This document shows, piece after piece, positions 10,301-14,230 of a stretch of DNA of 64,000 nt (positions within the stretch are counted from its first letter, which is position 1; every line of letters starts with the position of its first letter). The position numbers and the translations under genes are program-made. Source of the DNA: Mayamaea pseudoterrestris (Eukaryota); contig BROI01000006.1 of NCBI GenBank assembly GCA_027923505.1, forward strand, positions 434,001 through 498,000, in the 5' to 3' direction. Below the pieces are notes generated by a model. It did no database searches, was not told the origin of the DNA, and worked only from the letters and a program-made list of their open reading frames with translations.

Positions 10301-10711
10301 CTAAACATTAAGATGAAAGCTTTGCATACTGTTGAGAATCGGCGCAATTGGTCATCGACACCTGAGCAGTGTATGCACGACTGAAGCGAACACATTCGCG
10401 GGGCGGGGAGGTGGTAGGATCAATGGTTTTACAATGTCTGCAACGACTTTTGCGCGCTACGCGCGCACAAACATTGCCAAACAGCAGACGCAGTATGCTA
10501 AATTAACTGGCTCGGGTAGATGATGTCGCAGAACCACCGGTCATTTATGGGTCATTGGAGTAGACTGCACGAACGCCAAGAAGTACGGCATGTCGCACCA
10601 AGTTACACCCATTAATGTCGTGAAGCATGTCCGGATATATCCTACCACAATTAATGTTGCGTAGACTCGACTACGGGAGACACTGCTGGATGGCAGCTTC
10701 GGGCATCCTGC

Positions 10712-13700
10712 CTACGCAACTTCATACGCAAGACCTTGATAGGTGCCAAGCGTGTCGCCGAGTACAGTTCCGACAGGACAGCTCTTGTATAATATGGCAG
10801 CAAAACGTTTTAAGAGCCTAACATTCATCCGATGAAACACCACTGACTGCTCTGATATAAGATCCATGCCGTATTTCCAGCCATGGCCATAGTCTTCCGC
10901 CCAAGTCTTGTAGCAGCGCTTTATGAATTCATTCCCATTTTCGTTTTGACCCGCGACCCACGCGGGGCTCAAGTCAAAGAACCGTTGCTGATGAGTCTCA
11001 TTGTTAGCAGAGTCAATAATTTTAATGCCAGCATTGTTTAAACATTTGCCCACAAACCGATCCTCCACTGCTATCATGGACGTTCCGTGGCATTGAGCTA
11101 GCTGCTCTATAAATATTCTTATCGCTTGGCGGTTTAGTATATACCCAGGACCACCGACAGCAAAATCGAAAAATTTGTTGGCAGTGGCGAACTGACGTAC
11201 AACGAGGCCGCTGTAAATTGGTTTCTGCTCGCGCCCATGCTTGCTTTCCAGCTCAGCAATGTAATACCGCATATTCTCAACTATTGCGACCAAGTCGTTA
11301 CCAGCCACGTAAAAATAATCGAAAGAATTGTCGTCATCTTCGTCCATATAATTGTCATATATGTAGCCCAGGATAGAGCGCGTTTTCTGCCACATGTTGT
11401 TGTACATTTCTGGTCCAAAATGTGGTAGGTCGATAGCTCCAAATCCTGGCTCATTGGGGTCGTCCACCGTTTTGGTCGACGCCGCAAAGTAGCCATCGCA
11501 GCGCCATCCCCATGTTTCGGCGAGCGTTTGGGTCTTTCGATGATCTCCCGCGTACGTATAAATAGCACAGAGAATTCGTGCGGGTGGTAAAGTGCCATTG
11601 GAGGGCGGCGGTGGCAAAGGAGGAAAGGCCCGAGTATGGTTCGGGCTGAGACCGTTGATTTGTATCCGGTTTGTAGCGATGTCCCAGCCTGTCCCTTCCT
11701 CAACTCCTTGACCAGGAGGAGCGTCGCACACATAGGTGAACTCATTCGTTCCGTCAATGTGGCTGACTTGTTTAATTGGAATGTACGTCAACGGGGAACT
11801 GTGGTTGCGACTGTGATGTTTCTCAAATTCCTCGAGAAAGTGGCGTCGAACTCGGGTAACATCGGCAACGTACCCAAGAATGCCGCCACTCGTTCTTGCA
11901 CCTGCGCGCGGATGCAGGTCGGGGTTCGGTTCGTCCACGTAGTAGGTAACATTCTTTGGTATTGCGTCGCCGAGCGCCGAGCCCGTAGAGCACGTTCGAT
12001 AAACAATGGCCGCCAGGCGGCGCAGCAAAGTTGGATGCGTCAACCCGCCCAGAGCAATGGATATTTGAGAAATGGTTGCCAGAGCTAAGCTTCGTTCGTT
12101 CCAGGCATCGGCAATCGTTTGCTGGTTGTTAGTCTGGCTAGAGAATATCTTTGGTGACACATGCTCGAAACGTTGTCGTCCCAATGTGTCAGTCGATTCG
12201 ACGATGCGTACGAGGTCCGGATCGCGATAATTTGCCACGCGATAGCCCGTGTTAAATCATTCACCGTGGTGGTGCACGCGATAAATTCACGCGCGCCTCG
12301 TCATTTTTTTCGACCATGGCGCATCATTGCCGTCGCTCTACTAGTATTCTTGTAAATGCCTCCACTACTATACATGAATTGCAGTCTCATCAATGTAGCA
12401 ATTACTGTCATTGATCATGTAGGCAAAGGTTCCGCAAACGAGGAAGGAATCAGCCTTGATGGAGCGAGGAGAGCAAGCCAGTCTTGTACGGCGTACGGCT
12501 GCGTCTCCCTTGCGAGGTTGACGCTTCAATGAAGGCCATGCAGCAATATACAAAGCATCGGCGCAAAGGACCCTCTTTATTCTGTATAATCAGTGTGTGC
12601 GAGACTCGGCAAATTGTTGAATAAGCTGCAAGCAACGACGTTGACTCTCATTTTTTTGGCTACTTCCTCGCCTTGAACTCATCGGCCTTGCACCAGCGCG
12701 TAAATTAATCAGACTGCAATGACGGAGTAATAGATTGGCTGAAGGCAGATTGATATTGCAAGGCGCTTCAGTTGATTTCCCATGGTGTGTCAACGATTCG
12801 GCGGCAGCAACCCTTGCGGCATGCTCATGCTGTCGTTGTCGACGAGCTGGAACACTTCAAGTATCCATGAAACGGAGGATCAGACGCTATATATTGATGG
12901 ATCTATGACAGCAGACTACAAAGGTCTGTTACGCGGGTAGCTGTACTCCATTTAGAGCGTGTAATGGACTGGAATCCTCGTTTGAGTGAAGGATGCACGC
13001 GCATTTACACGGTCGCTCGCGAGGAACAAAAGGCTCATTTTCAGTAGTGTACACTATTATCTAGCAGTCCATTATCATTAATAACATCATATTATAGCTT
13101 GTAAGTGGTTGTTACATTGTAACTATGCTTCTATTAGGTGTTAGTGGACGTTTTGGTGGGTGGCCGTCAATTTAACACGGGCTATCGCGTGGCAAATTAT
13201 CGCGATCCGGACCTCGTATGCCAAGTGCTTTCAAGCATGACTCGGTCGGTCGCAGATCGGATGCGCACACGGACGGCTCAGTCACTGAACCCACTATTTT
13301 TCGCAGCGCCGCTTGGTTCAAAACGTAGCCAAATTGCCCGGGTAACTGGTAGCTTGGAAGCGGACGACCCGCGTAAAGTGGAACAGAGTTGCGCTCAAAT
13401 TTGTTGTCAAGCTGCGCCAGAAATTGCTTCAAATTGTCAATAATAACGAGCGTTCCAACATCAACCACCAAGAAGTAATCATATTCATCCAGATAGTTTT
13501 CGGCAACGAAGGTAAGTGCCGATTTTGCTGTTTCTGCCGTACCAAAGGTCTGCAGGAACTGATGCATTATCTTGACGGCTGTAGAGAGGTAACCACTGTC
13601 GTCGTCCCGTTGCTTTGAGCTCACGGCAGCATAGCCGTCGCATAAAAAGCCCCAAGTTTCAAACATGGCATGTTCAAACTCCTTGCCTCTTTGACGATCA

Positions 13701-14230
13701 GAATCTTGATTGTCAATGACGCAAAGAAACTTGGCTGTCGGCAGCGACGACGAATTTGCTTGCTGCTCCACTGCGGTCAAATTAACGGAAAACAGCGCCA
13801 GCGTATCTTTATCAGCAGCTTCATTGTAGACACTTATCTTGTTATGAAAAAGATCCCAGCCCTCGGGAGTCTCCATACCATGTCCAGGTTTTTGAATACA
13901 TACGGTGGAGTTCATGAGCATCAAGTGATGCTCGAATGGAAAGACGCCGGATTCGTTCTTGTTCCCACTGCCCCGTCTTATATGATATGCATCTTGTTGC
14001 AGCAGTTGCGCAAGCTCCCTAAAACTGCTTGTATCGAAGTTGCTGCTGTAATTTTTGGCTGCTAGTTTCGTTTGTGACCCCATCAGGCGCAGCTGTTGCG
14101 ACGCTCGTCCATTATTATTTAGTTGCCAAGTAAGTCTCAAAATAGATGCTATGAAGCAAAATGGAATGGCCGGATGAAGCTTGACGTTGCGCGACGCCTT
14201 GTTTGTCGCTGCTGTTGTGCTCGAACTCAT
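10712..14230 (-). pseudogene. Two-domain GT31 (C1GalT1-like beta-1,3-galactosyltransferase) gene interrupted by a transposon in this allele
   Basis: Segments 14230-13217 and 12208-10712 join in frame (CLKALGI|RIVESTDTLGRQRF) to give 836 aa. Domain 2 has RILCAIYT, ETWGWRCDGYFAAS, YNNMWQKTRS, VENMR, GGPGYILNRQA, EDRFVGKCL, QRF and SVVFH. Domain 1 has FETWGFLCDGY, PLYAG and GYVLNQAAL. Confidence 0.85.
12211..13216. mobile_element. Non-autonomous Tc1/mariner-like DNA transposon (MITE-type), 1006 bp
   Basis: Perfect 47-bp terminal inverted repeats at 12211-12257 and 13170-13216 (CGAGGTCCGGATCGCGATAATTTGCCACGCGATAGCCCGTGTTAAAT). Flanked by TA at 12209-12210 and 13217-13218. No internal ORF longer than about 67 aa. 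Removal restores the host reading frame. Confidence 0.93.

Follow-up and report, generated by a model that had tools for sequence, protein, structure and literature searches.

The window analysed here is a 64,000-nucleotide stretch of genomic DNA from the diatom Mayamaea pseudoterrestris. At the locus under study, a minus-strand gene predicted to encode a two-domain GT31-like glycosyltransferase is interrupted by a 1006-bp element occupying positions 12211-13216 (Table 1). A sequence-only reading of the window had described terminal inverted repeats (TIRs) of 47 bp without mismatch and a TA on each side, and both features were borne out: the left and right TIRs are exact reverse complements over 47/47 bases and both TA dinucleotides are in place. 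The longest perfect inverted repeat in the element's bin is 49 bp (TIR plus TA) as compared with 9-13 bp in the 29 other 2-kb bins of the window; thus, the 47-bp repeat is far beyond chance. TA makes up 3.6% of the dinucleotides in the window. The element has a GC content of about 47%, and the short TIR motifs CGCGAT and CACGCG are repeated at element positions 65-83. Removal of the element and one TA rebuilds GGC ATA CGC ATC GTC (G-I-R-I-V) on the minus strand, exactly as had been proposed, and yields a single 918-codon stop-to-stop frame. With the element in place, the host frame terminates RGPDRDNLPRDSPC-stop, which confirms the predicted truncation by a TIR-derived tail and stop. The 352-aa length given for the truncated protein holds only with the Met at 14230 as the start; the other Met codons give 434, 406, 404, or 382 aa.

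Table 1. Features of the element and of the interrupted host gene in the window.
Feature	Position	Strand	Remark
Host gene 3' part, 498 codons + stop	10712..12208	-	predicted second GT31-like (core-1 beta-1,3-galactosyltransferase/Fringe-like) domain
TA target-site duplication, left copy	12209..12210	.	one TA kept at the empty site
Left TIR, 47 bp	12211..12257	+	begins CGAGG
Non-coding interior, 912 bp	12258..13169	.	apparent mosaic between family members
Met-Thr codons then GT, in element	12406..12411	-	with AG at 12135-12134, reproduce the P0121 start
Right TIR, 47 bp	13170..13216	-	minus-strand reading gives 14 codons + stop (13172-13174) joined to the host frame
TA target-site duplication, right copy	13217..13218	.	
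Host gene 5' part	13217..14230	-	predicted degenerate first GT31-like domain; open frame reaches 14476, with an uncertain start codon

The 3' half of the host gene matched two Pfam families below the curated cut-off, Galactosyl_T at E 7.6e-4 and Fringe at E 0.011, and retrieved 112 homologues at E<=1e-5, several of which are named glycoprotein-N-acetylgalactosamine 3-beta-galactosyltransferase. The 5' domain is 31% identical to the 3' domain (E 4e-22), and the 5' part, in which a membrane anchor is likely as read by eye, also matches homologues of the family. The genome contains at least seven paralogues of the host domain at 31-36%. An acidic motif, GDD in 85 of the 112 homologues, is GND in the host 3' domain and is missing from the 5' domain. 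Given these departures from the acidic motif and the paralogues, the host gene may belong to an expanded family in which it is dispensable. No full-length two-domain homologue of 873-2490 aa was present among the 7986 candidates scored, an absence that carries little weight. The two host halves are deposited as two separate proteins, P0233 for the 5' half and P0121 for the 3' half. P0233 is a 326-aa model with the same TIR-derived tail. P0121 starts MTTNNQQ, in which Met-Thr precede the genomic frame. Between 12100 and 14500, the minus strand has a single ATG-ACn-GT, which lies within the element (at 12411); the P0121 gene model therefore probably starts inside the element, and this is a feature of the gene model only.

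Four of the eight public runs with part of the region were compared as contigs (X1 to X4); they cover three samples and two studies, X2 and X3 being one sample and one run possibly being the window's own source. In the contigs of all four runs, position 12206 is joined to 13215. The joint omits exactly 1008 letters, equal to 1006 + 2, with zero extra letters and is therefore an empty site with a single TA. Mapping across the empty site had been suggested as a check, and the empty form was thus found directly; the search for excision footprints suggested along with it gave none at the empty joint in 4/4 runs. For the filled form, a contig in X1 and in X2 begins in the right TIR and continues into the host flank; the filled left junction was not among the 32 of 458 pieces listed. 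Contig depth at the filled right junction was 50.2 versus 43.6 for the empty form in X1 and 23.1 versus 23.3 in X2, values that describe assembled contigs rather than copy number and that a 1:1 mix of two clones would also produce. As filled and empty forms are equally deep in both runs, heterozygosity is the simplest reading, and the insertion is most likely heterozygous in a diploid cell, in agreement with the earlier suggestion.

Near the element, the two haplotypes differ from the window at 7 and 39 positions, respectively, across 404 bp. The right flank of the window shows 3 differences from the empty contig versus 26 from the filled one, and the left flank shows 31 from the empty X4 contig. 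The window is probably a mosaic of both haplotypes that switches at the element. Contig assemblers may choose either allele at heterozygous sites, and for this reason the idea that X1, X2, and the window come from different strains was dropped. Owing to the resemblance of the right flank to the empty haplotype, the stop-free 5' half of the window partly reflects the intact allele. Both host halves are indeed open, as had been pointed out, but their openness loses its value as a sign of youth because part of it comes from that allele. Inside the host frame, 19 of 24 differences are silent among the 40 of 213 entries listed. Across window positions 11987-14216, the haplotypes are up to about 10% apart, mostly at silent positions, which is well above the 2.97% k-mer heterogeneity quoted for this species, described as diploid (PMC9724779). 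At 13508-13850, one X4 contig with a depth of 2 omits 341 letters; the skipped stretch has GT..AG ends on the opposite strand to that of the host gene.

A DNA search of the genome with the element returned 10 loci, and the most diverged copy used as the query recovered the same 10. Full copies number five (two on contig C6 and one each on C11, C14, and C23), are 953-1026 bp long and share 75-85% pairwise identity. A sister copy on C13 and C5 is 98% identical to the window copy (423/437 and 576/584), from which it differs by 18 substitutions and one 3-bp indel. The remaining loci comprise a left end (C2), interior fragments (C1 and C31), and a diverged right end (C16). The 30.6-Mb assembly contains 14 family ends in all, and no two copies in the family are identical. 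All six two-ended copies are flanked by TA|TA with no wider common target. Three of these copies are found in reading frames: one in the glycosyltransferase gene, one in a C13/C5 gene without a name, and one at the final codons of a Maf1 gene. The copy-number check proposed by the sequence-only reading thus found TA-flanked relatives rather than a single-copy element, and these results together support its reading of the insertion as an IS630/Tc1/mariner-type (ITm) TIR element, non-autonomous and targeted to TA, in a coding exon.

The sister copy is itself interrupted by a 5.2-kb LTR retrotransposon that has a 5-bp duplication and LTRs identical at 213/213 positions. We take this retrotransposon to be Copia-like from its motifs; its only Pfam match was zf-CCHC. 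With the element removed, the flanks of the sister copy form a frame open throughout the roughly 498 codons examined. The sister copy is split across contigs at the nested retrotransposon (L040:1-5638 at the start of C13; L039:3604-9401 on C5). C13 starts within the second LTR, and C5 carries the same retrotransposon (99.7%) in which one LTR lacks 9 bp and abuts unrelated DNA; the split reflects a misjoin or a translocation. At the copy in the end of Maf1 (L004:2468-3637, C6:805.8-806.9 kb; Pfam E 1.6e-41), three residues are replaced by a 14-residue TIR tail. Separately, a 63-bp segment at window positions 10391-10453 is 90% identical to L043:8242-8304, the DNA just inside the diverged C16 right end.

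All five full copies have perfect, self-matching TIRs over 40-47 bp. The first 40 TIR bases contain 6 variable positions, and each copy (5/5) carries the same letter at both of its ends. The perfect TIR pair is kept family-wide and gives no insertion date, because copies that are only 75-85% alike all have matching ends. Neighbouring informative sites were more compatible than when shuffled (p 0.0003 with 74 sites; p 0.001-0.003 with 51 thinned sites), and this result, obtained from five sequences in a gapped alignment, is suggestive of sequence exchange between family copies.

The interior was examined for coding capacity and for structured RNA. A 60-sequence ITm profile scored in none of the 30 interior frames, while a decayed ITm relic used as the control scored E 1.7e-19; none of 56 stop-free stretches reached the cut-off for a transposase remnant or another Pfam domain. 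Along the longest open frame, the variable columns were distributed 76/77/76 by codon position, showing no codon periodicity, and 144 of 166 pairwise indels were not multiples of three. The family interior evolves as non-coding DNA. One copy (C6:804804; L004:1856-2434) has a 192-codon open frame, a length reached by 1 of 500 shuffles. A coding interior was rejected, as this frame is broken in the other copies and lacks codon periodicity; it had no Pfam or Atlas match and no significant genome match outside the family. The search for structured RNA gave no Rfam match at E<=1, and folding of the element, run without a shuffle control, produced the TIR stem.

We consider it highly probable that the element is a non-autonomous cut-and-paste ITm transposon inserted in one allele of a sheltered diploid, and that it belongs to an old, low-copy, recombining family whose partner is absent or unseen. 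A mariner-type transposase supplied in trans would bind both 47-bp TIRs and excise a donor copy. That copy would then insert into the glycosyltransferase exon of one homologous chromosome, at a TA that is duplicated in the process. The filled allele is predicted to end in the TIR-encoded 14-residue tail and to lose the second GT31 domain, and the intact other allele would shelter the diploid cell. The family would be old and of low copy number, with members that have exchanged sequence; the enzyme with matching ends would reside on sequence not shown in the assembly or would have been lost.

A less likely though still arguable reading is that the insertion is very recent and the family is jumping now, an intact partner in the same cells having been missed by the assembly. 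The coexistence of an empty allele with the filled one, the 98% identical sister copy, and the location of three of the six two-ended copies in reading frames would all agree with ongoing activity, and a heterozygous partner might likewise have escaped the assembly, in which this locus appears in one form only. Against this stand the lack of any identical pair of copies and an empty joint free of footprint letters; furthermore, the 17 matches to the terminus pattern consist of the 14 family ends and three sites with no TIR likeness beyond the pattern. In X1, TIR depth relative to the haplotype contigs was threefold that in X2 or X3, an excess equalled by an unrelated repeat (control-to-TIR ratios of 4.72, 5.01, and 4.73 in X1, X2, and X3, respectively). 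Because that repeat, at window positions 10611-10653, has the same X1 excess, there is no sign of element-specific amplification, and amplification of the element in X1 was rejected. The repeat itself is about 43 bp long, has varied AT-rich flanks and reaches bin depths of 77-228x the haplotype contigs in three runs. The description of the insertion as very young therefore lost its footing, given family-wide TIR perfection and a nearest sister 18 substitutions and a 3-bp indel away, and so did that of an active family, for which no footprint was seen and the X1 depth hint failed against the control repeat.

The sequence-only reading had placed the transposase elsewhere in the genome. DDE_3 gave three genome matches and the IS630 model NF033545 gave the same three, all of one family. 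Two of the three loci are 3.76-kb two-gene IS630/Tc1-like elements (on C29 and C5), which are TA-flanked and have 64-67-bp TIRs starting CTACGAATTC; the C29 transposase frame is intact. This was the only intact ITm transposase family found in the genome. A protein search with the C29-type transposase added a decayed relic on C1 with other TIRs. Genome searches with PF01359 and PF03184 gave no matches, with controls positive in only 0 and 1 of 14 genomes, respectively; PF17906 likewise gave none, its controls being positive in only 2/14 and never over the cut-off. PF01498 produced a single match (E 0.2) with nothing relevant by eye. The terminus pattern of 12 bases matched 17 sites in the genome, 14 family ends and three without further TIR likeness, and the extra matches to looser patterns were all non-family. 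No long coding element was found between family ends in the assembly, which shows one haplotype. The TIR patterns had no matches in the metagenome and viral collections, and when contigs of those collections were scanned with P0010, a homologue of the transposase, none of 46 candidates was confirmed. The expected longer copies with a DDD/E transposase were thus not found by terminus patterns, and the claim of a transposase encoded elsewhere in the genome is not supported: no long element carries the family ends and the intact ITm element has unrelated TIRs.

Two loci were noted alongside these searches. The decayed ITm element on C1 (L059:830-2086, C1:55.2-56.4 kb) carries TIRs of 122 bp, and its transposase, which is broken, is related to that of the 3.76-kb family. 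On C4 (L049:1375-2541), an open 389-codon transposase frame is 71% identical to that of C29, has no TIRs detected nearby, and adjoins a tandem array of about 169-bp units.

We regard as improbable a reading in which this is an orphan diatom family of about six copies, with matched ends and a recombining interior, moved by a TA-targeting transposase that has diverged beyond the reach of current ITm profiles or by the resident two-gene element acting through an internal motif common to both TIRs, and in which the insertion may give the downstream GT domain a new first exon. If true, the insertion would split a two-domain gene into separately expressed proteins rather than merely cost an allele. 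Slightly less credible again is cross-mobilisation of the family by the resident 3.76-kb element. That element represents the sole intact ITm transposase family found, is TA-flanked too, and has an 8-10-base motif at a depth in its TIR similar to that in the family TIR (positions 20-29 and 17-26). However, the termini are unlike from the first base (CTACGAATTC versus CGAGGTCC), the shared motif is non-significant (in tests of 2000 shuffles per copy, three copies gave p 0.07-0.09 and the window copy p 0.75), and the two elements have no notable DNA or translated similarity. What the resident element has in common with the family is its genome, TA flanks, and the ITm group; it differs in its 64-67-bp TIRs of other sequence and its two genes, with only the non-significant 8-10-base motif in common.

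Several features bear on how the element, which we place in an old low-copy family of non-autonomous ITm transposons, should be named. Stowaway-type MITEs are moved by mariner-like transposases; they measure a few hundred bases, have an AT-rich sequence, and are very abundant. The element resembles them in being non-coding, in its TA target, and in its presumed dependence on an enzyme in trans, whereas it is 1 kb long, about 47% GC, and rare. It has the TIRs, the target-site duplication, and the lack of coding capacity of a strict MITE. However, its copies measure 953-1026 bp, above the range of under about 800 bp searched for MITEs in one survey (PMC4678618), and the family is small and heterogeneous, with 14 ends and copies 75-85% identical except for one pair at 98%. 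The earlier MITE label was consequently abandoned, and the element is better termed a low-copy non-autonomous mariner-type element.

TA duplication is described as marking or defining the ITm group (PMC7325037, PMC8533490) and is found here at 6/6 copies together with terminal inverted repeats. As many mariner TIRs start CGAGG (PMC4678618), the CGAGG start of the element points to mariner proper (DD34D), five bases being a lead and not proof. Placement in the mariner-type group rests on the TA, the first five TIR bases, and the length. The same source places partner-less elements in the superfamily by TA and TIR alone and describes non-autonomous mariner lineages, 800-950 bp long, for which no partner is known (PMC4678618). 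The closest counterparts of the element appear to be non-coding mariner lineages of roughly 0.9-1 kb. The deleted 'drosophila'-subfamily lineages and the partner-less MITE_51/MITE_120 of Rhodnius prolixus share TA, CGAGG, a length of about 0.9-1 kb, and the absence of a protein (PMC4678618). Mariner lineages of that insect are described as keeping transposase remnants and occurring in tens to hundreds of copies (PMC4678618); the diatom family, in contrast, has a 47-bp GC-rich TIR, no detectable remnant, and six two-ended copies. Sailor (DD82E) is reported to have a TATA duplication and TIRs starting GT or CC (PMC8533490), while the diatom element has TA only and starts CG.

It is very unlikely that the element lies outside the ITm group, whether as an A...T-ended element of 1008 bp that inserted without duplicating its target or as a member of another TIR superfamily. 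Blunt insertion of an A...T-ended element into T^A formally gives the same sequence as a TA duplication, and no enzyme was found; however, the strict TA at 6/6 sites without a wider consensus and the CGAGG terminus as in mariner (PMC4678618) argue otherwise. Misassembly of the element into the gene is scarcely credible: the window does resemble a haplotype mosaic at the element and the sister copy is broken across two contigs, but X1 and X2 contigs connect the TIR to the host flank and a misjoin would not yield an exact TA duplication.

Mariner elements and MITEs are on record in microalgae, among them Tisochrysis lutea and, for mariner-like elements, Amphora diatoms (PMC5963040). The repeat table of the species paper gives zero DNA transposons (PMC9724779, supplement sheet S3), and the main text of a 2025 preprint on diatom transposable elements (10.1101/2025.10.24.684338) mentions neither mariner, MITE, nor the genus Mayamaea. 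We found no published description of this family in the literature, mostly open-access, that was searched. The family looks undescribed, but the kind of transposon is familiar and ordinary.

The element brings a class II family to the record of a diatom whose published repeat table has zero DNA transposons (PMC9724779). It also provides a PCR-testable, most likely heterozygous knock-out allele of a GT31-like gene, and the insertion can be used to track clonal lineages and to detect loss of heterozygosity. An active partner, if found, could make the family a possible native mutagenesis tool for diatoms. As it stands, the element opens no new mechanism and its importance is modest. Elsewhere in the assembly, one contig carries two copies, 58 kb apart, of a segment that spans at least 3 kb and is 94.6% identical between them (L060 and L061, C3:547 kb and 606 kb), possibly representing both haplotypes assembled in tandem.
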